Virus record (IMG/VR): IMGVR_UViG_3300043788_000114
Coordinates: 64,001 to 128,000 of that record
Direction: 5' to 3' (one strand)
DNA from: a virus
DNA length: 64,000 nucleotides
Shown: piece by piece, positions 3,117 to 13,919 of the stretch
How the letters are laid out: each line of letters begins with the position of its first letter
Position numbering within the stretch: the first letter of the stretch is position 1
Position numbers and translations under genes: made by a program
Notes under the pieces: model-generated
Told to the model about the DNA's origin: nothing
What the model saw: the letters and a program-made list of their open reading frames with translations, nothing else
Databases searched by the model: none

Positions 3117-3397
3117 TTCGCTGCCGGTCTCGCGATCACGGCATGGAGCGTCACTTCGTCATCGGTAAAAGAATAGAGCACGGTCAAATCCGGCTTATGC
3201 CACGCATGATCCCCGCTTTGCGAATACACCCAAAACCGTCCCTTGAAGTGAGTGCCTTTCTCTGGCTTATGCGCTAGCGTCCATTCCAGCGAACGGTAGG
3301 CCATCTCCCCGCGCGCAAATTCTCTTGTCGCACGGTCCATATCGACAGAAAATTCTCTGTCTTGGACCACCTGTCGCAATTTAGGATTCGTTTCCAA
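3113..3397 (-). CDS. putative RelE/ParE-fold toxin
   Basis: 94 aa, coupled to Panacea gene; C-terminal LTVLYSFTDDEVTL strands. Confidence 0.55.
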   Translation of the reverse strand: METNPKLRQVVQDREFSVDMDRATREFARGEMAYRSLEWTLAHKPEKGTHFKGRFWVYSQSGDHAWHKPDLTVLYSFTDDEVTLHAVIARPAAK

Positions 3398-3917
3398 AGC
3401 GCGAACTTATCACAGAATCGGCCCACGCGCGATCTTCATCTGTGATAGCTCGTGGTGTTGCCATGATAGCAAAGAGAGGAATTGTTTCACCCATTTCAGC
3501 TAGTTTCCACCACTCAGCGTGGGTCGCATCGCTGATAGATGCGGCTGTGTGAGAGCATACCGTGTCAGTCATTTTGTTAATAAACTCCAGATCGTCAGAA
3601 GTGAACAGACTTAGATCTGGCTCTGTTTTAGTTATGTATTCCGTCCGGAAGTAATTGACCACCCTTACGGTTCGAATTTCCAGCGCCCCCTCTTCCACTA
3701 ATTCCTCTAGGAGTGGGAGCATCGCGGCCACAACAGGACCATTCTTTTCCTTAATAAAGCGCGCGCCTGTCAACGCGTGCCCGTTCGTCTTCACGTAGTG
3801 ATTTGTCTCGACGTACCAAATCACCTTGTTAAGTTTCACTGCCCCCAGACGCGCAGGATTCTCCCGGCAACGTGAACACACGTAGTGCACGAGTCTTTTC
3901 AGTTTTGTCCTGTTCAT
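3381..3917 (-). CDS. Panacea (DUF4065/SocA-like) antitoxin
   Basis: KLNKVIWY, TGARFIKEKNGPV, ISDATH..W motifs. Confidence 0.85.
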   Translation of the reverse strand: MNRTKLKRLVHYVCSRCRENPARLGAVKLNKVIWYVETNHYVKTNGHALTGARFIKEKNGPVVAAMLPLLEELVEEGALEIRTVRVVNYFRTEYITKTEPDLSLFTSDDLEFINKMTDTVCSHTAASISDATHAEWWKLAEMGETIPLFAIMATPRAITDEDRAWADSVISSRFGNES

Positions 3918-4220
3918 CTCTTTGCCGCCCTTCCGCGTCCTAGCGAACGTGGCTCCATAAAGGGGGTTTCCCAAGTTGTGCCACGTTTGCTGGACGTGAC
4001 TACAACACGTTTTGCTTGCAGGTCAATTTAGCAGCAGATTTCCACACTTGCACGCAAAAATCAGCTAGCTGCTAATTTGACGCGTCGAGTGGGGAAATAG
4101 CTTCGCCGTTCGTTCGCCCACATGGTTCGCTTTTGGGCCGGGGAAACCTGTCCTCAATTCGACTCCTCTTTTATAATACCCTTTTAAGGGGGATTTCAAG
4201 GGTTATTTCAAGGGGGGTTT

Positions 4221-4493
4221 ATGGGGGATGAACCAGAGAATAAAGGAGGGCGACCGGGAGCCGGGCCTCGTTACCCGGTAGAGATTAGAACCATGGACGC
4301 TGTCACGTCCCGAATGCTAGACACACTTGTTACGTACGGTCGGTTCGGTGACTCAAGATCACAGGTGGCTCTTTTCATCATTCGAAAGTGGCTGTTTGAG
4401 AACGAGGACCGTTTACAGAAAGCAATCGCGGCTAGGAAATTTCCCCTCGGAGACATCGATTCCGACTTTGAACCGCCGACAAATCAGAGTTAG
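4221..4493 (+). CDS. putative ribbon-helix-helix regulator
   Basis: MLDTLVTYGRFGDSRSQVALFIIRKW. Confidence 0.55.
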   Translation: MGDEPENKGGRPGAGPRYPVEIRTMDAVTSRMLDTLVTYGRFGDSRSQVALFIIRKWLFENEDRLQKAIAARKFPLGDIDSDFEPPTNQS

Positions 4494-4557
4494 GAGACGG
4501 CCCATGAGCACCGGAGGCTCTGGGTTAGTCACAGTATTTATTGCCAAAAAATACGGC

Positions 4558-4586
4558 TTGACATTCTGCGCCGCCCGATGTACCGT
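4558..4586 (+). promoter_or_regulatory. promoter of tRNA array 1
   Basis: TTGACA-17bp-TACCGT. Confidence 0.7.
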
Positions 4587-4596
4587 CAAAAACGTG

Positions 4597-4680
4597 ATGA
4601 CTCGATTCCATAGCGACTTCCCAGCAACAGCGGCCACGCAGCCGCAAGGTAATCGCTCGCCTGAAATGGGGTCTCAATAG
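4597..4680 (+). CDS. leader peptide of tRNA array 1 (MTRFHSDFPATAATQPQGNRSPEMGSQ)
   Basis: GTG/ATG at predicted TSS; has codons for all 12 array-1 tRNAs; its 3' end is complementary to the terminator arm. Confidence 0.75.
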   Translation: MTRFHSDFPATAATQPQGNRSPEMGSQ

Positions 4681-4713
4681 GATTTTTCATCGCAATGGAG
4701 CGAAGAAAACTAC

Positions 4714-4753
4714 GAGGCCCCGGACACCGAAAGGTTTTCGGGGCTTCTGCTTT
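4714..4753 (+). terminator. attenuator terminator of array 1
   Basis: GAGGCCCCGGA...TTCGGGGCTTC-TGCTTT with inner ACC-GAAA-GGT hairpin; weak U-tract. Confidence 0.65.
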
Positions 4754-4808
4754 GTGCGGATGAATAAAGGCGATAGCTTGAGTGGTATTTTGATGTTAAA
4801 CTCTGTGC

Positions 4809-5420
4809 ATGGCTGCAATCGATATGGCTGTGTATATGGCAGAGCGCCGGAAGAATCGGCGCGATAAACTGATTGCGATGTCGGGCGGGAGATGCATCAA
4901 GTGTAATTCAACCGACGATCTCAATTTTGACCACAAAGACCCGAAGGATCGCTCATTCCGATTGACTGGTAAGGCGCTGGATGGTTCGTGGGAAAAGATT
5001 CTTAAAGAGTGGCGAAAATGCCAGTTGCTTTGTAGGGTTTGTCACCTTCGGAAGACAAAAGAAAATGACGAGTACGGCGAACCGCCGAACAAGGGCGTTT
5101 CGAAATGGGGAGAAGTTCTTCCTGAGCACGGATGTGAAGCGGCTTACGCGCATGGTTGCAGATGCGATGAATGCTGTAAAGCGAGATACGAAGCGCGAGT
5201 TCGTCGCGGCGAATTGAAAGGTATCCGTGGACCACGAGGAGCAAATAATCCGAAGGGCGTCATCAAACACGGAACGCGCTCCGGATACCAAGCGGAGTTG
5301 AGACAAGGTTTAACTGCTTGCGATGAATGCAGAAAAGCGAACGCGGAAGAGACGCGGCGGCGCAAGCAAAATGAAAAGTTTGTTCCGAGGGAACCAGACG
5401 GTACGGTAGCGCACTGTTAA
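4809..5420 (+). CDS. HNH endonuclease with Zn-binding C-terminal repeats
   Basis: CIKC..LNFDHKDP...CQLLCRVCH; HG...GCRCDEC. Confidence 0.85.
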   Translation: MAAIDMAVYMAERRKNRRDKLIAMSGGRCIKCNSTDDLNFDHKDPKDRSFRLTGKALDGSWEKILKEWRKCQLLCRVCHLRKTKENDEYGEPPNKGVSKWGEVLPEHGCEAAYAHGCRCDECCKARYEARVRRGELKGIRGPRGANNPKGVIKHGTRSGYQAELRQGLTACDECRKANAEETRRRKQNEKFVPREPDGTVAHC

Positions 5421-5458
5421 TGCGACAATAACAGGTTCGACTCCTGTCCTCGGAGCCA
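5384..5458 (+). tRNA. tRNA-Asn(GTT)
   Basis: Cloverleaf, loop CTGTTAA, GGTTCGA, CCA. Confidence 0.9.
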
Positions 5459-5467
5459 GTTTGAAGT

Positions 5468-5543
5468 TGGGGAGAAGTTCAACGGGTGGAACGCTCGGCT
5501 CTGACCCGAGAGGCAGCAAGTTCGAGACTTGCCTCCCCAGCCA
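5468..5543 (+). tRNA. tRNA-Gln(CTG)
   Basis: Loop CTCTGAC, CCA. Confidence 0.9.
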
Positions 5544-5558
5544 AGTTTGGAGGACCAC

Positions 5559-5730
5559 ATGAAGGATTATCGCGAAACGAAAAGGAACTACGCACGACGG
5601 ATGCGACCTCTCTGAAAGCAAGTTGGCCGGTGCATCTGTTGCGGCGCACGACCGGCTGAGCAAGATCGAGCGAAGTGTACGGTGTGTCTTTGAGCGCCAG
5701 AGACTTTATGCGAAGACACGAAAGAAATAG
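5559..5730 (+). pseudogene. decayed small Zn-finger ORF
   Basis: SD+ATG, in-frame TGA at 5613, CICC...CTVC, apparent frameshift at about 5691. Confidence 0.4.
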
Positions 5731-5801
5731 GGGAATGGCCGAGCGGCTTAGGCGAGTGTCTTTGAAGCACTTTCAGGTGGGTTCAACTCCTACTTCCCCT
5801 G
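5729..5801 (+). tRNA. tRNA-Gln(TTG)
   Basis: Loop CTTTGAA; no encoded CCA. Confidence 0.85.
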
Positions 5802-5802
5802 C

Positions 5803-5878
5803 GCGGGCGTAGTTCAATTGGCAGAACGTCGGAGTGCCACTCCGAAGGTTGCCGGATCGTTGCCGGTCGCCCGCTCCA
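5803..5878 (+). tRNA. tRNA-Gly(GCC)
   Basis: GCGGGCG acceptor, loop GTGCCAC, TCCA. Confidence 0.85.
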
Positions 5879-5969
5879 ATTTGAAAGGGTAGTTGCAATG
5901 GAACACAGGATGATTTTGATGAGCCCGGACTTGAAGGAAGTCCACAGAGTTGTAGTTGTAAGACGCAAG

Positions 5970-6044
5970 GCACCATTAGCTCAACAGGCAGAGCACGGGA
6001 TTCGTACCCCCGAGACTGGCGTTCAAGTCGTCAATGGTGCTCCA
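5970..6044 (+). tRNA. tRNA-Thr(CGT)
   Basis: Loop TTCGTAC, CCA. Confidence 0.85.
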
Positions 6045-6094
6045 CAAGATAGCGAGCCGTCAGAATAGCGACGATTCGTTATGTAAGGCCGCGA

Positions 6095-6171
6095 GGTATG
6101 GTACGGCCCGGTGATGTGAGCCGCGGCGGGGCATGGCAAGGCTTGGTATGGTCAGGTAGGGTGTGGCATGG
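6095..6171 (+). repeat. period-5 GGNNN degenerate tandem repeat
   Basis: 13 of 15 consecutive pentamers start with GG. Confidence 0.75.
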
Positions 6172-6716
6172 GCAGTTTAATGCGTAGATCGGTGCTTCAG
6201 TTGAACGCTTCACTAGAAGCGATTCGCATTATTTCTGCAAAGAGGGCTTTGACTTTGTTGACTAAGGGCAAGGCCCTCACTGAGGTTTCGACGGGGATTG
6301 AGATTTATCCCGGCGTGTTCTTGCCTAGCGTGATTAGGCTTCGGCACTACGCGAGGGTTCCGCATAAGAGGCCGATTCCTTCGAGGAAGAATATCTTTGT
6401 CCGCGATGGGAACCGTTGTCTTTACTGTGGGGCCAAGGGACCGAAGGTTACTCTTGAACTTGAGCATGTTATCCCGAGGTCAAGAGGAGGACAAGGGTCG
6501 TGGGACAACTTGGTTTCGGCGTGCCACGAGTGTAACCAGAAGAAGGGTGATCGTACACCACAGGAAGCTGGAATGACTCTGATTCATCGTCCTTTGCCAG
6601 CGACGGTACACACAAACCGTTTCGTGCTTAAGCAACTTGGGGAAGAAATTTCTGAGTGGAGTCCATTTTTGTGGCAGGACAACAAGGGCGACACTCGCTT
6701 TCAGTTTGTGCATTAG
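6168..6716 (+). CDS. HNH endonuclease (McrA-like)
   Basis: VLQLNAS, PSVIRL, RDGNRCLYCG, EHVIPRSRGG, WDNLVSACHECNQKKG. Confidence 0.92.
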   Translation: MGSLMRRSVLQLNASLEAIRIISAKRALTLLTKGKALTEVSTGIEIYPGVFLPSVIRLRHYARVPHKRPIPSRKNIFVRDGNRCLYCGAKGPKVTLELEHVIPRSRGGQGSWDNLVSACHECNQKKGDRTPQEAGMTLIHRPLPATVHTNRFVLKQLGEEISEWSPFLWQDNKGDTRFQFVH

Positions 6717-6737
6717 GATGGTGATCCTAAGTTTTGA

Positions 6738-6812
6738 GCCTCGCAAGCATTGCCGTCGATGCGCCGGTCCTGTAAATCGGTGAAGCCAGTTAGACTCTGG
6801 CGCGGGGCTCCA
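6738..6812 (+). tRNA. tRNA-Thr(TGT)
   Basis: Loop CCTGTAA (C33), CCA. Confidence 0.8.
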
Positions 6813-6822
6813 TAACTTTCAT

Positions 6823-6898
6823 GGAGCGATTGGCCGAGAGGTAAGGCACCAGATTGTGGCTCTGGTATACGTGGTTTCGAGTACCACATCGCTCCCCA
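6823..6898 (+). tRNA. tRNA-His(GTG)
   Basis: G-1:C73 pair, loop TTGTGGC, CCA. Confidence 0.9.
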
Positions 6899-6906
6899 AT
6901 TTTTAC

Positions 6907-6987
6907 GGGCCGTGGAACTGCATGGGGTGGTTGCCTCTCTTGCAAAGAGGAAATGTCAGGCGAGTTCGATTCTCGCACGGTCCACCA
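6907..6987 (+). tRNA. tRNA-Ala(TGC)
   Basis: G3:U70, loop CTTGCAA, ACCA. Confidence 0.9.
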
Positions 6988-6993
6988 ATTATT

Positions 6994-7239
6994 ATGAAGC
7001 GACCGAAGTGTACGAAAGTCGATTTCATTGTCTGCGGTCGCATCGACGATCCGAGGACGAACAATGCTCCCGGATCGGAACTCAGGAAGTGCTCTGAGTG
7101 TGAAAGTGAAGTGAGGATTCATCCGACAACTATCGACGCGAAGATCAATGTACCGATCCTGTGTTTGCAGTGCGCACTGGCCAAGATGGAGTGTTCGGAA
7201 GAGGAGATGGAAGAGCAGGGAACAAGATTGCAGGTTTGA
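6994..7239 (+). CDS. small Cys-rich hypothetical protein
   Basis: CSEC...CLQC; fills the gap between tRNAs. Confidence 0.6.
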   Translation: MKRPKCTKVDFIVCGRIDDPRTNNAPGSELRKCSECESEVRIHPTTIDAKINVPILCLQCALAKMECSEEEMEEQGTRLQV

Positions 7240-7246
7240 AGATTTC

Positions 7247-7321
7247 GGACTCGTAGCTCCAATGTAGAGCGGCACGTTGAAGCCGTGCGCGTTGCTGGTT
7301 CAAGTCCAGTCGAGTCCACCA
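7247..7321 (+). tRNA. tRNA-Phe(GAA)
   Basis: Loop TTGAAGC, ACCA. Confidence 0.9.
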
Positions 7322-7329
7322 AGTTTTAA

Positions 7330-7403
7330 CAGGGCGGAGCGCGGTCTGGCAGCGCACCAGTTTCGGGAACTGGCGGTCGGAGGTTCAAATCCTCTCGCCC
7401 TGA
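7330..7403 (+). tRNA. tRNA-Pro(CGG)
   Basis: Loop TTCGGGA; abuts next tRNA, no CCA. Confidence 0.88.
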
Positions 7404-7478
7404 CGGGGATTAGCTCAGAGGCAGAGCATTCGCTTTGGGAGCGAAGGGCCGGGATTTCGAAATTCCCATCCCCGACCA
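7404..7478 (+). tRNA. tRNA-Pro(TGG)
   Basis: Loop TTTGGGA, ACCA. Confidence 0.9.
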
Positions 7479-7490
7479 TTTTGAAGATGT

Positions 7491-7566
7491 GGGCTGTTAG
7501 TTCAACTGAAGAGAATATCGGTCTACGAAACCGAAGATGGAGGTTTGAGCCCTCCACGGCCTACCA
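7491..7566 (+). tRNA. tRNA-Arg(ACG)
   Basis: Loop CTACGAA, ACCA. Confidence 0.88.
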
Positions 7567-7587
7567 AAAATAAACTGCGCTTTTCTA

Positions 7588-7616
7588 TTGACGCGGTTTG
7601 GGAATAGCGATAACGT
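7588..7616 (+). promoter_or_regulatory. promoter of Y RNA/Ro60 unit
   Basis: TTGACG-17bp-TAACGT; predicted TSS at the first Y-like RNA. Confidence 0.6.
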
Positions 7617-7620
7617 TGAT

Positions 7621-7692
7621 TTTGTCGATGGTGAAGTTTACGGATACTTCTCTTCCAAAGAAAACCTCTGTGAGCGTTTGTTCCTCGACAAA
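7621..7692 (+). ncRNA. Y-RNA-like 1 (short)
   Basis: Terminal stem TTTGTCGA/TCGACAAA, GGTGAAG...TTGTTC, GATACTTC; upstream of Ro60. Confidence 0.7.
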
Positions 7693-7695
7693 GAT

Positions 7696-7833
7696 TTGCG
7701 GTTGGTGTAGTTTCAGTTACTTCTTAATCAGCAGGTCACGGGTTCGAGTCCCGTCAAGCAGCAATGCTTGTAGCTCAGTTGGTAGAGCAGCCGAGGCGAA
7801 AGCCAGTACCCTGAAGCGCCTGTTCCGCCGCAA
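7696..7833 (+). ncRNA. Y-RNA-like 2 (YrlA-type, permuted tRNA domain)
   Basis: GGTGTAG...CTGTTC stem; T arm, closed acceptor, then D arm TAGCTCAGTTGGTAGAGC. Confidence 0.85.
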
Positions 7834-7839
7834 TAAAGT

Positions 7840-7910
7840 TCTCCGGTAGTGAAGAGGACGGTTACTTCACTCGAAATGAAAAACAACCGTTTTCGCTTGT
7901 TCTCCGGGGA
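7840..7910 (+). ncRNA. Y-RNA-like 3 (short)
   Basis: TCTCCGG/CCGGGGA stem, AGTGAAG...TTGTTC, GTTACTTC. Confidence 0.7.
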
Positions 7911-7918
7911 TTAAGTAT

Positions 7919-8021
7919 GAGCCGTAGTGGTCGTAAGGGTTACTTCTTGGTTCGATTCCAAGGTTGGAAGCAATTCCTACCTGCCGATTGGTCGGCTACC
8001 CCTTGCAAATGTTCTCGGCTC
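7919..8021 (+). ncRNA. Y-RNA-like 4 (YrlA-type)
   Basis: GAGCCG/CGGCTC stem, GTTACTTC, T arm TTGGTTCGATTCCAA, D-like arm, TGTTC. Confidence 0.75.
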
Positions 8022-8028
8022 TCTAAGT

Positions 8029-8158
8029 TCGGGTTGGTGTAGGAAACAGTTACTTCGCCTGTGGAGCGAGTAGTTCGGGTTCGAATCCCGGCGTCTTCTT
8101 CGGAAGATGTAGTGTAATGGCAGCACGCTTACGTCACTGTTCCGTCTGTTCCGCCCGA
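8029..8158 (+). ncRNA. Y-RNA-like 5 (YrlA-type with anticodon arm)
   Basis: GGTGTAG...CTGTTC; anticodon-like arm, T arm, UUCG-capped acceptor, D arm. Confidence 0.85.
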
Positions 8159-8167
8159 TACTACTCA

Positions 8168-8203
8168 GAGAGCCTCTGCTTCGGCAGGGGCTTTTCTATT
8201 TTT
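8168..8203 (+). terminator. intrinsic terminator after Y RNAs
   Basis: AGCCTCTGC-TTCG-GCAGGGGCT-TTTCTATTTTT. Confidence 0.75.
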
Positions 8204-8220
8204 CACCGGGAGGGTGAACG

Positions 8221-9645
8221 ATGCGTACAAACGTAGCAGAAAAGAAGGCGCTCATCTACACGCACGAGGGCGCAGTGGCGGTGTTCATCAACCCCGTCGA
8301 TCAGCTTCGCCGCTCTGTCATGGCGAACATGTTATGGGAGGACGAGTTCTACGAGGATGGCCAGTCCATTGCAAAGCGGATTCAGGAAACGACCGCCGAA
8401 ATCCTCAAGCAGAAGAACGGCGCGCAGACCGTGGCGGACATTGCGTTTGAGGCCCGCACGAAGATGAAGCTGCGTCACGTCCCGTTGCTTCTATTGGTTT
8501 CGCTCATCCGTGCGAAGACCGATCAGACACGGAAGGTTGTGGCGGAAGCCATCGCGCGTGTGGTCCAGCGGCCAGACGAGATGGGTGAATTGATCTCGCT
8601 CTACTGGAAGCTGAATGACAAGCGTGCCATGTTGCCGCACCAGATGAAGATCGGCCTCGCGGCGGCGTTCCAGAAGTTCGATGCCTACTCGCTCGGAAAG
8701 TGGAACTCGGATGCGGCGGCGGTGAAGCTGCGCGACGTCCTGTTCTTGACGCACGCGAAGCCGAAGGATCAGGCACAGGCAGAACTCTGGAAGAAGTTAG
8801 CGGAGAAGACGCTGGAGTCGCCGGATACGTGGGAGGTGGCTCTCAGCGGCGGTGCTGACAAGAAGGAGGCGTTCACTCGTCTGCTCGCCGAGGAAAAGCT
8901 GGGTGCGCTGGCGCTGCTCCGAAATCTGCGGAATATGCAGCAGGCCGGTGTCGACGTTGAGGCGATCCGCAAGGGTCTCGGAACGATGAAGACAGAGCGT
9001 GTTCTTCCCTTCCGCTTCATCACGGCGGCAAAGTACGCTCCGCAGTTGGAGCCTCAGCTTGAGCAGGCCATGTTCCGGTGCCTCGCAAGTCAGGAGAAGT
9101 TGACGGGCAAGACAGTCTTGATCGTCGATTGCTCGGGATCGATGCATGGCGGAATCTCTGCCAAATCCGAACTGGACCGTCTCAGCGCGGCTGCTGCATT
9201 GGCTATGCTGGTGCGTGAGGTCTGCGAGGATGTTGCCGTGTACGCGACGGCGGGTGACGATGGTCGGCGCATCCACGCGACGATGCTGGTTCCTCCGCGT
9301 CGTGGTTTCGGTTTGCGTGATCTGCTTTCCTACGAGAGCACGAGCCGCAAGATCGGCGGAGGTGGAATCTTCTTGAAGCAGGTGATTGAGTACGTCCGCA
9401 AGGAAGAGAAGGACACGGCGGACAGGATCATCGTCATCACCGACGAACAGGACTGCGATCTGGTAAACAAGCCAGCAAGCGCCAAGCCATTCGGGAAGAA
9501 CAACTACCTTATCAACGTGGCTAGCTTCAAGAACGGCATCGGCTACGGAGAGTGGGTCCACATCGACGGCTGGAGTGAGGCGATCTTGGATTACATCCAG
9601 CAGTACGAGCGGTTGCAGGAAACCGGCAATGAGATTTCTGCCTAA
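8221..9645 (+). CDS. rsr: Ro60/TROVE RNA-binding protein
   Basis: THEGA, RPDEMGE, ALLRNLRNM, VLPFRF, vWA DCSGSM, ITDEQ; adjacent Y RNAs. Confidence 0.95.
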   Translation: MRTNVAEKKALIYTHEGAVAVFINPVDQLRRSVMANMLWEDEFYEDGQSIAKRIQETTAEILKQKNGAQTVADIAFEARTKMKLRHVPLLLLVSLIRAKTDQTRKVVAEAIARVVQRPDEMGELISLYWKLNDKRAMLPHQMKIGLAAAFQKFDAYSLGKWNSDAAAVKLRDVLFLTHAKPKDQAQAELWKKLAEKTLESPDTWEVALSGGADKKEAFTRLLAEEKLGALALLRNLRNMQQAGVDVEAIRKGLGTMKTERVLPFRFITAAKYAPQLEPQLEQAMFRCLASQEKLTGKTVLIVDCSGSMHGGISAKSELDRLSAAAALAMLVREVCEDVAVYATAGDDGRRIHATMLVPPRRGFGLRDLLSYESTSRKIGGGGIFLKQVIEYVRKEEKDTADRIIVITDEQDCDLVNKPASAKPFGKNNYLINVASFKNGIGYGEWVHIDGWSEAILDYIQQYERLQETGNEISA

Positions 9646-9665
9646 TTTCCCTTGGTACCATTTGC

Positions 9666-9917
9666 CTAAAGGGCACGGCTCAACACCGTGCCCTTTCTTT
9701 TTGCCTTCTCCAGTCGCTTGCGCGCCGCGTCGTTGCGGATCGCCAAGTTGAGCCCGCTGGTGTAGCTGAGCACGAAGGAGCCACGAGTTCCTTTGAGCCG
9801 GAAGATCATGTATCCCGGCTTGAGTTCCACGATGATCTGCCGCTGGCGTCGCCGGTCGTAGACGGTGTTCTCCGTCTCGACGATGAGTTTGGATTTACGC
9901 TGCGATAGCTTGCTCAT
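9666..9917 (-). CDS. hypothetical protein
   Basis: ORF coupled to upstream gene. Confidence 0.65.
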   Translation of the reverse strand: MSKLSQRKSKLIVETENTVYDRRRQRQIIVELKPGYMIFRLKGTRGSFVLSYTSGLNLAIRNDAARKRLEKAKRKGTVLSRAL

Positions 9918-10461
9918 CTGACACCTCCACTATTGCGATCTTCTTTGCGTAGTACCTGACCTTCGTTTCCCACTTCTTCCGGAGCGTGGTGGCACGCTTC
10001 TCGCGCGTGAGCGCCGCCTTGAGCATCCGCTGGCAGTGAGCCAGCTTGGCGTCCGGTGCAGGGCGAGTGGTCGTTACCTTCGGCCTTACCTCCAGCGGTA
10101 GCTCATTGGCCCACGCGTAGATTTGCCGGTAGCTGCCGAAGCGTCCGTACCTTGCCGAGTGACGCATCATGTACTCATCGCGCGCTCCACGCGTGTGAGC
10201 AAGTTCGTGCGCGATCACCATTGCGAAGTCCACCTTATCTGGCGTGCGCTTGGAGAGCCGCACCTTCATCCAGTTCCCTCTAATGCTGGCTTCGCCACTA
10301 GAGTACGTGCTGCCGTTTCTCCGGGTGTATACAACCTTCACATGTAGGGATGGCGCTCCGCGCTTGCATAGATCAGGACGTTCCTCCGGCATCTGCCGAG
10401 AGATGAATGCCCGGATATGATCATCGCGCCAGTGAGTTTTGTTGCTGAGTTTGATTCGCAT
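9895..10461 (-). CDS. zincin-type (HExxH) protein
   Basis: VIAHELAHTRG. Confidence 0.7.
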   Translation of the reverse strand: MRIKLSNKTHWRDDHIRAFISRQMPEERPDLCKRGAPSLHVKVVYTRRNGSTYSSGEASIRGNWMKVRLSKRTPDKVDFAMVIAHELAHTRGARDEYMMRHSARYGRFGSYRQIYAWANELPLEVRPKVTTTRPAPDAKLAHCQRMLKAALTREKRATTLRKKWETKVRYYAKKIAIVEVSDEQAIAA

Positions 10462-10611
10462 AGCCGTGTTTCCCCCTGCATCTATTTTCTCATCGACGAT
10501 TTTTGTAAACTGCGAAATCGCCTGTATTCATGCGGTCTCCGACGTGTAAGTAATTGACAGTACAGTGTCGAAATAAATCTCTTGACAAGAATTTCCCATT
10601 TTGCGGTTAGA

Positions 10612-10971
10612 ATGTTCTGGGGGAGAAAATTGCTCATCATTCTGGCGCTTGTATGGATTCACTTTGTGTCGGATTTTCTGTTGCAGTCCGACAAGATGGC
10701 GATCAATAAATCGAAGAGTTGGAAGTGGCTCGGCATCCATTGCGTAACGTACTCGACGCCGTTCCTGATCTTCGGCTGGCGCTTCGCGCTGGTCACCCTT
10801 GCTTTCCATTTCGTGACGGATGCGATCACGTCGCGTGGCACAGCGTACCTGTGGAAGCGGGAGATGCGACACTGGTTCTTCTCGCTCATCGGCTTCGATC
10901 AGGCGATCCACCTGAGCACGCTGATTTTGACCTACCATTTTTTGCTTGCAAAGAATCTGGAATGGGTGTAG
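10612..10971 (+). CDS. DUF3307 membrane protein
   Basis: HFVSDFLLQ, HFVTD, FDQAIH. Confidence 0.85.
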   Translation: MFWGRKLLIILALVWIHFVSDFLLQSDKMAINKSKSWKWLGIHCVTYSTPFLIFGWRFALVTLAFHFVTDAITSRGTAYLWKREMRHWFFSLIGFDQAIHLSTLILTYHFLLAKNLEWV

Positions 10972-10974
10972 GCT
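10946..10974 (+). promoter_or_regulatory. promoter of tRNA array 2
   Basis: TTGCAA-17bp-TAGGCT; GTG 8 nt downstream. Confidence 0.6.
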
Positions 10975-10981
10975 GATTTTC

Positions 10982-11068
10982 GTGCAGATAAGGACCAAAT
11001 CCGTGAACACGAGAATGACCGGGAAGCGGGTCATTTGGGGAATCGTGTCCGGGGGTTTGGGAACCTAA
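10982..11068 (+). CDS. leader peptide of tRNA array 2 (MQIRTKSVNTRMTGKRVIWGIVSGGLGT)
   Basis: Leaderless GTG; has codons for all 12 array-2 tRNAs; CCGGGG complementary to terminator arm. Confidence 0.75.
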   Translation: MQIRTKSVNTRMTGKRVIWGIVSGGLGT

Positions 11069-11096
11069 TCTGCAACAAGATTCGGAACTCAAAGCA

Positions 11097-11122
11097 CCCC
11101 GGCTCAGGCCGGGGATTTTTTT
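11097..11122 (+). terminator. attenuator terminator of array 2
   Basis: CCCCGGC-TCAG-GCCGGGG-ATTTTTTT. Confidence 0.85.
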
Positions 11123-11135
11123 GGTCTTTGAAAAA

Positions 11136-11210
11136 GCGGGTTTAAGCTAGTTGGCAAACTGCCTGCCTCCAAATCAGGACTCAGGGGTTCGATTCCTCTA
11201 ACCCGCGCCA
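11136..11210 (+). tRNA. tRNA-Trp(CCA)
   Basis: Loop CTCCAAA, G73, CCA. Confidence 0.82.
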
Positions 11211-11211
11211 T

Positions 11212-11287
11212 CGCGACGTAGCTCAGGTGGTGGAGCGCCGATCTCATAAGTCGGAGGGCGAGGCTTCGAGTGCCTCCGTCGCGACCA
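11212..11287 (+). tRNA. tRNA-Met(CAT), elongator type (Ile2 not excluded)
   Basis: Loop CTCATAA, paired 1:72, ACCA. Confidence 0.85.
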
Positions 11288-11293
11288 AGTTTT

Positions 11294-11388
11294 GCCGGAA
11301 TCCTCGGGCGAGGCGCTGGGATTTATAACCCCGGTTGTTGTCGGTAGATTGCCGATGTGCGAGGGATCATACCCCTCTTCCGGCCCCA
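11294..11388 (+). tRNA. tRNA with TAT anticodon (Ile) and long variable arm
   Basis: Loop TTTATAA; V-arm GTCGGTA/TGCCGAT; short D arm; CCA. Confidence 0.7.
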
Positions 11389-11390
11389 GT

Positions 11391-11467
11391 GAGCGCGTCG
11401 TATAGCGGCTGATTATACCTGCCTCTTAAGCAGGCTGACGCTGGTTCAAATCCAGCCGCGCTCACCA
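11391..11467 (+). tRNA. tRNA-Lys(CTT)
   Basis: Loop CTCTTAA, ACCA. Confidence 0.9.
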
Positions 11468-11474
11468 AAGTTTT

Positions 11475-11560
11475 GGGATCGTACTCGAATTGGATGCAGA
11501 GACCTGACTTTTAATCAGCGGGGAAACCCAATGGGGGTTCGAGTCCCCCCGGTCCCACCA
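11475..11560 (+). tRNA. tRNA-Lys(TTT) with variable arm
   Basis: Loop CTTTTAA; extra GGG-GAAA-CCC arm; ACCA. Confidence 0.85.
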
Positions 11561-11564
11561 AGTT

Positions 11565-11641
11565 GCTCCCGTATCGGCGCTGTCTTCTAAACAGCAGGCC
11601 GTAGACGGATGACGCGGGTTCGACTCCTGCCGGGAGCGCCA
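11565..11641 (+). tRNA. non-canonical tRNA-Arg(TCT), no D arm
   Basis: Intact acceptor, anticodon and T arms; CCA. Confidence 0.75.
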
Positions 11642-11647
11642 TGTTTT

Positions 11648-11725
11648 GCCGCTGTACCTCACCCGCCTCCTAAGCGGGATTCGAGTAACTGGATGATGCC
11701 GGTTCAACTCCGGCCAGCGGCACCA
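11648..11725 (+). tRNA. non-canonical tRNA-Arg(CCT), no D arm
   Basis: Same architecture; loop CTCCTAA. Confidence 0.75.
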
Positions 11726-11730
11726 GTTTT

Positions 11731-11807
11731 GCTGCCGTACCGGGTCGCCCTCCGAAGGCGAATACCGTAGATGGAGAAGGCAGGTTCGAGTCCTGTCGGC
11801 AGCGCCA
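11731..11807 (+). tRNA. non-canonical tRNA-Arg(CCG), no D arm
   Basis: Same architecture; loop CTCCGAA. Confidence 0.75.
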
Positions 11808-11811
11808 GTTT

Positions 11812-11889
11812 GCAGGGTTAACTCAGTCCGCTCAGAGTGCCTCTCCTACAAAGAGGAAGCCGCAGGTTGAAATCCTGCACCCTGCACCA
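11812..11889 (+). tRNA. tRNA-Val(TAC)
   Basis: Loop CCTACAA (C33), ACCA. Confidence 0.85.
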
Positions 11890-11894
11890 AGTTT

Positions 11895-11969
11895 GCCGGT
11901 CAAGCACATGCGGATGTGTACTCCCTTGGTAAGGGAGAGGCAGAGAGTTCGATCCTCTCGACCGGCCCA
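11895..11969 (+). tRNA. tRNA-Thr(GGT)
   Basis: Loop TTGGTAA. Confidence 0.85.
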
Positions 11970-11973
11970 GTTT

Positions 11974-12048
11974 GCCGATGTAGCTCAATGGGAGAGCATT
12001 CCCTTGATAAGGGAAAGGTCAGTGGATCGGTACCACTCATCGGCACCA
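11974..12048 (+). tRNA. tRNA-Ile(GAT)
   Basis: Loop TTGATAA, ACCA. Confidence 0.88.
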
Positions 12049-12065
12049 AGTGTAGAATTGCAGGC

Positions 12066-12392
12066 ATGGCTCAATGGGAAGTGACTATACGCGCAAACAT
12101 TCTCATCACAGACGATGATGATGACGAAAACCAGTTTGCTGAGCAGTACACTTTCATCTGGTCCGCGCCCGACTTCATTTCGGCAGTGATGTCAGTCCAG
12201 CAGAAGCTCGACACTTTGAACGAGCGCACGAAGAAGAAGTGGGAAGAGACTGCTCGCAAAGCACGATTCATGGAAGAATACAACATCGTCGGGTTGATCG
12301 AAACCGATCACGTGCTATTCGGCGACAAGTGGATAGATGAGTTCGTAGAACGAGGCGTAATAGATCGCAATTATGCCGAAGATGAAAGTTGA
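12066..12392 (+). CDS. acidic hypothetical protein
   Basis: ORF filling the gap between tRNAs. Confidence 0.65.
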   Translation: MAQWEVTIRANILITDDDDDENQFAEQYTFIWSAPDFISAVMSVQQKLDTLNERTKKKWEETARKARFMEEYNIVGLIETDHVLFGDKWIDEFVERGVIDRNYAEDES

Positions 12393-12467
12393 GCGGGTGT
12401 CGTCCAACGGTAGGGCCACAGCCTTCCAAGCTGTTGACGAGGAGTTCGAATCTCCCCACCCGCTCCA
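12393..12467 (+). tRNA. tRNA-Gly(TCC)
   Basis: Loop CTTCCAA, TCCA. Confidence 0.9.
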
Positions 12468-12538
12468 TCACTCTCCGGAATAAAATCTGGAATAATTTGT
12501 GCTCGGAATTTCGATTTCTCCCGTGCTAAACTGCGCTC

Positions 12539-13177
12539 ATGTCTCTGAGCCTTGTCCCAATGCCGCTTCCGCCGCAGCCGTCTTTCCTGAATCCCAAGCG
12601 CAAACGACTCTGGGAAAAGTACAACGGCAAATGCCACTGGTGCGGATGCGAAACGCGGTTGGTGAATGACACAGCGCCGGATAAGGCAACCATCGATCAC
12701 ATCATCCCGCGCTACAAAGGCGGCACAAACGATCCCGCAAATCTGGTAAATTCCTGCAATCTTTGCAACAACCGGCGAAACTACGAAGATCATTTCGGAC
12801 TTGCCGAAGGCACCTTGTTAGGGAAGTACAAGGGAGGCCAGAGCAACACGGAACGCAGGGCGGCGCGGCGCGCGCAACTGAAGCACATCGCTCTAACCGG
12901 TGACGAAAAACGGGCGATCCTCGAAAGACTCGACGCTGGGAAGACACAACCACAACCACAGCCGCAAGCACCGATTCAGACGCGTCCGCCAGCGGCCCGC
13001 TACAGCACGGAGGAGGTCCTTCGCGAGCAGCGCGATCAGGCGCAGAAACGCATCGTCGAATTGCAGAAGGAATTGGATCGAGTGCAGGCCATCGCGGCGA
13101 CGCAGGAAAAAGAATTGAAGTCGATCACTGTGGTGGGGCTTATCCGGAAGCGGATCGCCGAGTGGCTTTTGTCTTGA
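12539..13177 (+). CDS. HNH endonuclease with coiled-coil tail
   Basis: CHWCG, TIDHIIPRYKGG, NLVNSCNLCNNRR. Confidence 0.9.
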   Translation: MSLSLVPMPLPPQPSFLNPKRKRLWEKYNGKCHWCGCETRLVNDTAPDKATIDHIIPRYKGGTNDPANLVNSCNLCNNRRNYEDHFGLAEGTLLGKYKGGQSNTERRAARRAQLKHIALTGDEKRAILERLDAGKTQPQPQPQAPIQTRPPAARYSTEEVLREQRDQAQKRIVELQKELDRVQAIAATQEKELKSITVVGLIRKRIAEWLLS

Positions 13178-13919
13178 CACGCTGCTAGAAATGCCATACA
13201 ACCATGAGAGCGCGGTTTCCGCCGATCCCGCGCGGGGTGCGAGCACTCCCAAAAGGCTCAGCCCTCCCCCTTGCAGCGGCCTGTCGTTTTCTTCCGGTTG
13301 AGACGGGCCGTTGCTTCCTCACTTCTCCTTGTAAATAATGGATTCCTTCATCACGCTGCCGCCGTGAAACGACGGTACGATTTCAGAGAGGCGCACCGAA
13401 AGCGGCGATCTCATCGCCAGTTCAATCTGCGCTTGGCGGATCGTCGCGAGCATTCTTCTTCGCGTCCTGCGCGCGGCAGGGAATTGCGCGTGCGTACACA
13501 CCCACTCGCACCGAAAGTTGCACCAGTCGCCTCTGCTTTTCATCGAGCGTCACGGCATCGAACAGGACCCACTTTAGCTTATCGACGGCGGTCATGAATT
13601 CTCCTTCAGCAACTCTTGGTTCCTCCGCTTCGCCGCCCGCTTGAGCCTGTAGCGCGCGTTGGCGCACTTGCGGCACTCCTTGATGATCAGGCCCCCGCGA
13701 CGATGCTCGATCACGTTGGTCCCCATCTTCAGGTGGCCTTGGCGGCAGCGGTCGGATGGTTTGGGCGGCATGGAATTACGCTACCCCGAGTATGGAATTA
13801 CGTCAAGACGCGGCGATTCCTCGCCGCCGCTCGCCAGCGATGATCGAGTGGTGCTGAGTCGTGCTGAGAGTTTCCAGAGGCGGTACGTGGAGTGGTGCAG
13901 GTGGCGGGACTGGCGTAGC

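Follow-up and report, generated by a model that had tools for sequence, protein, structure and literature searches.

This work concerns a 64,000-nucleotide (nt) stretch of DNA of a soil phage, namely bases 64001-128000 of a 138,516-base IMG/VR virus record (genome G000) that is rated as complete by CheckV; the whole stretch is called the window, and its own numbering is used unless another record is named. We focused our attention on positions 4558-4753, where a promoter-like site, a short open reading frame (ORF) and a terminator-like hairpin follow one another in front of an array of transfer RNA (tRNA) genes, and which we examined as a candidate attenuator of that array. Genome G000 carries three tRNA arrays: array 0 is located at genome 60625-63917, just before the window, and arrays 1 and 2 lie inside it. 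In the region of the latter two, tRNA genes alternate with HNH endonuclease genes, and they are followed by Y-RNA-like elements and by the gene of a Ro/TROVE protein. The features of the candidate attenuator and of its counterpart in front of array 2 are listed in Table 1.

Table 1. Features of leaders 1 and 2 and of the arrays behind them (window coordinates unless another record is given).
Feature	Position	Strand	Details
Promoter-like site, leader 1	4558-4586	+	TTGACA 4558-4563, 17-nt spacer, TACCGT 4581-4586
Leader ORF 1	4594-4680	+	28 codons from probable start GTG 4594, 27 from ATG 4597; stop TAG 4678-4680
Putative sensing zone of leader 1	4603-4656	+	Codons 4-21, where all 12 tRNAs are represented by one codon or more; from codon coverage and fold model
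Predicted antiterminator 5' strand	4668-4675	+	G-run at the end of leader 1; pairs with terminator 5' arm 4714-4721
Predicted intrinsic terminator 1	4714-4753	+	Hairpin 4716-4745, GAAA loop, interrupted U tail; from folds
HNH endonuclease gene	4809-5420	+	Between terminator 1 and first tRNA; PHROG 4234, E 7.9e-30; Pfam HNH below cut-off
tRNA array 1	5384-7566	+	Asn-GTT, Gln-CTG, Gln-TTG, Gly-GCC, Thr-CGT, Thr-TGT, His-GTG, Ala-TGC, Phe-GAA, Pro-CGG, Pro-TGG, Arg-ACG; ARAGORN, Rfam
Second HNH gene, inside array 1	6168-6716		Pfam HNH_5, 5.8e-17
Small ORF inside array 1	6994-7239		
Promoter-like site, leader 2	10946-10974	+	TTGCAA, 17 nt, TAGGCT, then 7 nt to GTG
Leader ORF 2	10982-11068	+	28 codons, stop TAA; start aligns with the ATG of relatives' leaders
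Terminator of leader 2	11097-11122	+	7-base-pair GC hairpin and T7 run; scan and fold
TCTTTGACAA-like motif	11121-11132; L006 11598-11607 and 3459-3468; L007 12806-12815; L014 4920-4930		
tRNA array 2	11136-12467	+	Trp, Met, Ile-TAT (n), Lys-CTT, Lys-TTT, Arg-TCT (n), Arg-CCT (n), Arg-CCG (n), Val-TAC, Thr-GGT, Ile-GAT, Gly-TCC; (n), non-canonical, read by hand

Leader 1 and the tRNA genes behind it

A promoter-like site is present where an earlier, sequence-only reading had placed a promoter in front of the leader, and the homologous leaders described below share its promoter/start geometry. In the general form TTGACA-N17/18-nAnnnT-N6/7-RTG, this geometry was found seven times in G000 versus 0.4 times in shuffled sequences, and, as four of these seven sites open ordinary ORFs of 70-405 codons, leaderless starts seem to be normal for this phage. 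The same reading had proposed a 27-codon ORF opening with ATG 4597; an ORF does lie there, but its start is probably GTG 4594, one codon earlier, since this codon is in frame, is located 7 nt past the -10 element and falls, in the alignment, on the codon with which the homologous leaders begin.

As had also been claimed, leader 1 contains codons for all 12 tRNAs encoded in array 1 (12/12), and the minimal span covering them is 16 codons long (4609-4656). The same letters read in the two shifted frames cover 7 and 6 of these tRNAs. Ten of the 12 genes were detected by ARAGORN with default settings; Thr-TGT (6738-6812) is found only by relaxed ARAGORN, and Asn-GTT (5384-5455) only by the Rfam tRNA model (46.3 bits). 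The first HNH gene overlaps the Asn-GTT gene by 37 nt. When the codon classes of the sequence-only reading are applied, 14 of the 135,524 stop-free 27-codon segments of G000 reach 12/12 (1e-4), and 10 of those 14 are the leader-1 locus itself; under standard wobble, 331 of 132,437 segments do so (2.5e-3). Taken alone, the leader-1 locus makes a case that is suggestive, not compelling, and the weight of the argument comes from replication.

Matched leaders at other tRNA arrays

All three arrays of G000 are preceded by a leader with the same spacing, composed of a -35 element, 17 nt, a -10 element, 7 nt and GTG. Leader 0, outside the window at genome 60492-60560, presents TTGACA, 17 nt, GAGGAT, 7 nt, GTG, a 22-codon ORF and a strong terminator, and it has codons for every tRNA of the array behind it (9/9, namely three Leu, one Cys, four Ser and one Tyr). 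Leader 2 covers 8/8 of the tRNAs called by default ARAGORN in array 2 and 12/12 when the four non-canonical tRNAs read by hand are included, the corresponding null count being 98 of 219,451 segments. When each G000 leader is compared with each array, coverage of the own array is 9/9, 12/12 and 12/12, whereas the other combinations give 1/12 to 6/12.

Relatives were obtained through homology to the neighbouring Ro gene (25 viral loci), and the replication set is made up of 16 leader/array pairs in six phage records: G000, L006/G002, L007, L008/G003, L019/G004 and L014/G005. The records L006/G002, L007 and L008/G003 are syntenic with G000, with identical tRNA order and homologous leaders at all three arrays. 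Over the 16 pairs, 157 of 164 tRNAs are covered when default ARAGORN calls are used, and 177 of 184 when relaxed calls and hand-read tRNAs are added; for the same nucleotides, coverage falls to 83 and 82 of the 184 in the +1 and +2 frames, and to 107 in the best antisense frame. Such frame specificity argues for decoding by a ribosome. The p values obtained from the segment null range from 4.9e-5 to 1.1e-2 for 15 pairs, with a value of 0.2 for array 0 of G002, where few tRNAs were detected. Moreover, every leader scores higher on its own unit than on any other unit of its genome, off-diagonal values being 0/5 to 6/9.

The records L019/G004 and L014/G005 are distant (Ro identity of 48-50%), and their arrays are partitioned differently, with leaders that follow the new partition. 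In G005, a 42-codon leader covers 26/26 tRNAs, and coverage is 7/7 for the leader that belongs to a separate Leu/Ser/Tyr unit; in G004, a 28-codon leader (unit B) covers 20/23, and Trp is located in the Ser/Leu/Tyr/Cys unit, whose leader has gained TGG. Similar adjustments were found at array 0 of the closer records: in G003, Met, Asp and Glu genes adjoin the array and leader 0 contains ATG, GAT and GAG; in G000, these genes stand behind a strong promoter of their own (TTGACA-17-GATAAT for the Asp/Glu tRNAs) and leader 0 is devoid of ATG, GAT and GAG codons; and in G002, there is neither a Cys tRNA in the array nor a Cys codon in the leader.

The design was also found in a cultured phage, Caulobacter phage CcrColossus (JX100810.1), which has two codon-matched leader units, with coverage of 12/12 and 9/10. 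In its block 2, an unannotated 39-codon ORF covers all 12 distinct anticodons, and block 3 presents TTGACA, 17 nt, 7 nt to ATG, a 31-codon ORF covering 9/10 and an annotated terminator; cross-block coverage is 2/10 and 5/12. The first block (Trp, Gly, Gly, Glu, Asp) has a promoter and no leader. The occurrence of the design in a phage of Caulobacter crescentus makes the idea directly testable in a laboratory host. The sequence-only reading had named beforehand, as grounds for its refutation, homologous arrays without a leader/anticodon match; the opposite was found, as leaders match their arrays in G000, in its relatives and in CcrColossus.

In a crude blind scan of 50 candidate sites, three leaders rank at the top. 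In two other distant Ro-bearing records with arrays (L022 and L011), no convincing leader was seen in the gaps inspected; in the blind scan, the adjusted p of one site in L022 was 0.017. A search of Viral_contigs returned only two weak matches (37% identity) for the leader product, and none for the upstream ORF of 90 amino acids (aa) or for the first HNH gene. In a phage collection searched by blastn in distant mode, only the Ro gene was matched, and the contigs of four soil DNA runs yielded scattered pieces of tRNA and Ro genes, with nothing usable on the leader. A relative identified through its helicase (50% identity) was considered for array comparison and set aside, as its 94.9-kilobase record has no tRNA.

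With regard to codon choice, 16 leaders were counted (from G000, L006, L007, L008, L014, L019 and L031), and for tRNAs with G34 they often use the U-ending wobble codon: CAT 6 versus 0 for His, GGT 6 versus 0 for Gly, TAT 7 versus 0 for Tyr and GAT 3 versus 0 for Asp. Over all G34 boxes, T was counted 44 times and C 34 times (p 0.002 against a background of 39% T), in a sample where homologous leaders are not independent. This preference may represent a tuning for slow decoding.

Terminator pairing and its interpretation

The terminator reported by the sequence-only reading at the end of the leader region was recovered in our folds, and its further claim, that the G-run at the end of leader 1 can pair with the terminator 5' arm, was borne out by energy prediction: the leader-1 3' segment (which holds 4668-4675) and the arm (which holds 4714-4721) form a predicted duplex of -18.0 kcal/mol, a value reached by 3 of 200 shuffles. 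In 14 of the 16 units, the segment that separates the leader from the first tRNA contains a hairpin with a U-run. Terminator sequences differ between genomes, and each leader's 3' end fits its own terminator; predicted duplexes between cognate leader 3' ends and terminator arms range from -13.9 to -20.6 kcal/mol, with a mean of -16.4 versus -12.3 for non-cognate pairs, and the observed mean was reached in none of 20,000 permutations.

For each of the three G000 units, the minimum-energy fold without a ribosome has the leader paired with itself (1:2) and the terminator formed. To model the ribosome, we assumed that it masks the RNA up to 11 nt beyond the A-site codon. When the A site is at leader-1 codons 2-21, the terminator 5' arm pairs upstream; once the A site has moved to the last 5-8 codons, this upstream pairing is lost. 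The two predicted pairings exclude one another: in the model, a ribosome in the zone of matched codons leaves the antiterminator free, and the terminator is left free by one that has arrived at the final codons or the stop. In the three G000 leaders, the zone that permits the antiterminator includes a codon for every covered tRNA. An automatic definition of such a permissive zone was also tried, and it failed for two of 15 units (array 2 of L007 and unit B of G004). If these two units are given a count of zero, the permissive zone holds a codon for 127 of the 168 covered tRNAs, and the enrichment of cognate codons in the zone over the tail is weak (159/92 versus 67/63, Fisher p 0.03).

Altogether, recurrence, specificity for the own array and for the frame, covariation with the terminator and the fold model support the attenuation that had been read from the sequence, and we consider it likely that segment 4558-4753 is a ribosome-mediated (leader-peptide) transcription attenuator gating the phage tRNA operon. 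The TTGACA-type promoter would start a leaderless transcript at GTG 4594. If all sampled codons are read promptly, the ribosome would reach the end of the leader and cover the G-run, the terminator would form, and transcription would halt before the HNH gene and the tRNAs. If one sampled codon is slow, its tRNA being scarce, uncharged or damaged, the ribosome would wait upstream and the G-run would pair with the terminator arm, allowing RNA polymerase to read through into the array. The same device would stand in front of the other two arrays of G000. As the products of an array decode its leader, the circuit would represent a negative feedback on each tRNA set. What triggers it physiologically may be anticodon nucleases, uncharged tRNA or antibiotics. 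A broader proposal, to which we give slightly less than an even chance, is that these leaders are a phage-borne surveillance of the tRNA pool, working as OR gates that would detect the loss of any isoacceptor, for example through a host anticodon nuclease, and then transcribe the replacement set, and that the same holds generally for unrelated phage lineages carrying large tRNA arrays.

Several observations weigh against attenuation. In leader 1, the -10 element TACCGT agrees with TATAAT at three of six positions, the TAnnnT positions being kept, and neither the simple consensus promoter scan nor the terminator scan listed the respective leader-1 element; the U tail of terminator 1 is interrupted. 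The homologous hairpin at array 1 of L007 is found without a U-run, and unit A of G004 is devoid of any terminator. Furthermore, the minimum-energy fold always favours the terminator where both structures are possible; because of this constant thermodynamic preference, the switch would have to be kinetic. An attenuator with one or a few codons per tRNA and no run has little leverage unless depletion is severe. The coverage has gaps as well: three tRNAs are missed by the unit B leader of G004, Arg-CCT is unsampled in three relatives, some leader codons of G002 and G003 have no detected tRNA, and leader 0 of G000 samples neither the Asp tRNA nor the two Glu tRNAs located behind array 0, its coverage being 9/12 if they are included. 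As for the sample, leaders and units outside the window were chosen by eye before counting, L006/G002, L007 and L008/G003 are mutually homologous with G000 and not independent samples, and only 8 of the 50 sites of the blind scan pass an adjusted p of 0.05, not all 8 of them by-eye leaders. Finally, a 58-aa product initiated upstream, at ATG 4504, may be made in G000.

The latter point bears on the possibility that the leader is the end of an ordinary small protein gene, whose polar C-terminal tail matches the tRNA codons by after-the-fact chance. In G000, the leader-1 frame is indeed open upstream to ATG 4504, which is preceded by a good Shine-Dalgarno sequence (AGGAGA, 4492-4497), and the resulting 58-aa ORF (4504-4680) had been called by a gene caller; the single-locus null obtained with standard wobble alone would leave room for such a coincidence. 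This explanation is nevertheless very improbable in our view. A search of 5.8 billion proteins returned no match to the 58-aa product other than itself, and no protein family matches it. Its N-terminal extension is missing in the three syntenic relatives, with an in-frame stop 4 codons before the leader start in G002 and G003, and 14 codons before it in L007, where no ATG or GTG lies in between; judging from this comparison, the conserved unit is the short leader, and the 58-aa reading is specific to G000. Moreover, the frame-specific match recurs at 16 units. That last result also bears on a sensor working without a ribosome, in which leader triplets would pair directly with tRNA anticodons, in the manner of a T-box, and so set the choice between terminator and antiterminator. 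Triplets complementary to all anticodons of a unit do lie beside a terminator/antiterminator pair; however, the matched triplets all belong to one frame running from start to stop (other frames cover 45%), the promoter geometry puts the start codon at the 5' end of the transcript, and neither a T-box nor any other Rfam family is matched at E values up to 1 in window 3500-13500 or in L004 3500-10000. We regard a ribosome-free sensor as extremely improbable.

Another explanation, unlikely but less so than these two, accepts that the codon match is real and selected, and assigns control to precursor processing or stability, to Rho-dependent termination or to translation of the HNH gene, instead of intrinsic termination. 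The presence of HNH protein genes between terminator and tRNAs would fit such routes, as would the two of 16 units without a hairpin plus U-run, the poor U tail of terminator 1 and a terminator that is always the preferred fold. Yet the other 14 units have both elements correctly placed, and the complementarity between a leader's 3' end and its own terminator arm, which goes beyond permutation, would be useless in any of these routes.

The nearest published systems are the leader-peptide attenuators of amino-acid operons (PMC1183508), the leaderless polycysteine short ORFs of mycobacteria and the inducible tRNA array of Anabaena. Leader-peptide attenuators are known from trp, his, leu and phe, and multivalent leaders from thr and ilvGMEDA. 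T-box elements bind one tRNA without a ribosome, and they control synthetase or amino-acid genes. The attenuator proposed here would resemble the T-box in coupling the state of tRNAs to the choice between terminator and antiterminator, and differs from it in that the match is bound to a reading frame. With leader-peptide attenuators, it appears to share a short leader ORF with regulatory codons, an intrinsic terminator and an antiterminator overlapping the leader 3' end; self-pairing of the untranslated leader, as predicted for the three G000 units, and readthrough following an upstream stall would be further likenesses. On the other hand, those attenuators regulate biosynthetic enzymes, and in their leaders the codons of one to three amino acids occur in runs, whereas phage tRNA genes would be regulated here, by leaders in which 7 to 26 isoacceptors are each represented by a single codon or a few. 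In addition, the supply of each tRNA species would be sensed, the product would feed back on the sensor, and the messenger RNA would be leaderless. Since there are no single-amino-acid codon runs, and since tRNA genes would be the regulated genes, we class the element as a variant, and not as a member of the classical attenuators.

Two further systems show partial similarity. In mycobacteria, leaderless polycysteine short ORFs have been described in which a tract of Cys codons senses one amino acid and unmasks a ribosome-binding site (bioRxiv 10.1101/834739); they are alike in using a leaderless short ORF as a ribosome-borne sensor before an operon, at several loci with one logic, and they are unlike in that the leaders described here sample a variety of codons and would act through a terminator before RNA genes. 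In Anabaena PCC 7120, the trn operon is a long supernumerary tRNA array beside an HNH gene; it is normally silent, and impaired translation induces it (PMC8421152). The main text of that paper contains none of the terms 'attenuat', 'leader' or 'terminator', and no codon-matched leader is described in it. A transcriptional repressor of the Anabaena array, TrcR, is named in the title of PMC10272220. Why phages should carry tRNA genes has been a matter of debate for decades, according to the abstracts of PMC10264068 and PMC13015707, and the main text of the former is devoid of 'attenuat' and 'leader'. Full-text literature searches returned no description of a leader or attenuator before tRNA genes.

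The control of phage tRNA genes has barely been addressed so far. If attenuation operates as proposed, the phage would measure the decoding speed for each tRNA species and make the set on demand, which would extend attenuation from amino-acid supply to tRNA supply, with many-input OR logic contained in an ORF of 22-42 codons. If the surveillance proposal also holds, phage tRNA arrays would represent inducible modules for counter-defence or homeostasis, and not constitutive codon supplements.

Neighbouring elements and unusual tRNA genes

A leader of this kind may be read as a list of the tRNAs in one transcription unit, including odd ones missed by gene finders, and each of the four hand-read tRNAs of array 2 has a cognate codon in leader 2. 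The tRNA-Arg genes TCT, CCT and CCG (11564-11800) have normal acceptor, anticodon and T arms, with only about 6 nt in the place of the D arm and a variable region of 18-19 nt containing a hairpin. The Arg-TCT gene of L007 (13346-13425) is built in the same D-arm-poor way, and the homologues in G002 and G003 are canonical. The fourth gene, Ile-TAT (11290-11390), has a long insert and escapes default ARAGORN. As leader 2 holds the cognate codons AGA, AGG, CGG and ATA, these odd tRNAs are suggested to be functional. HNH genes interrupt arrays 0 and 1, and they interrupt the arrays of the relatives too.

A conserved TCTTTGACAA-like motif is located between the T-run of the terminator and the first tRNA in several units. 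It is too near the tRNA to serve it as a -35 box, and may instead function in processing or belong to an internal promoter; in the latter case, the attenuator would be bypassed.

Just 5' of leader 1, the window contains an IS1595-family transposase gene (Pfam 2.7e-34) and a minus-strand gene with a SocA/Panacea domain, at 1975-2931 and 3381-3974. Between array 0 and the Asp/Glu tRNAs, at genome 62787-63263 (L004 6787-7263), the phage encodes a permuted, two-piece transfer-messenger RNA, as judged from a match to the Rfam model tmRNA_permuted (75.2 bits) and from the tag AEPFALPMAA given by ARAGORN. Downstream of array 1, YrlA-like Y-RNA elements with tRNA-like modules are found within 7570-9645, directly 5' of the Ro/TROVE gene (8221-9645); the element at 7731-7791 scores 46.5 bits, which is under the gathering score. 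The pairing of YrlA-like elements with Ro/TROVE also occurs in L006, L007 and L008. As a hint of the host only, a Terracidiphilus metagenome-assembled genome is given as the origin of one Ro homologue, which has 62% identity. The Ro protein has thousands of homologues, and those with 80-89% identity are in contigs of 100-134 kilobases.

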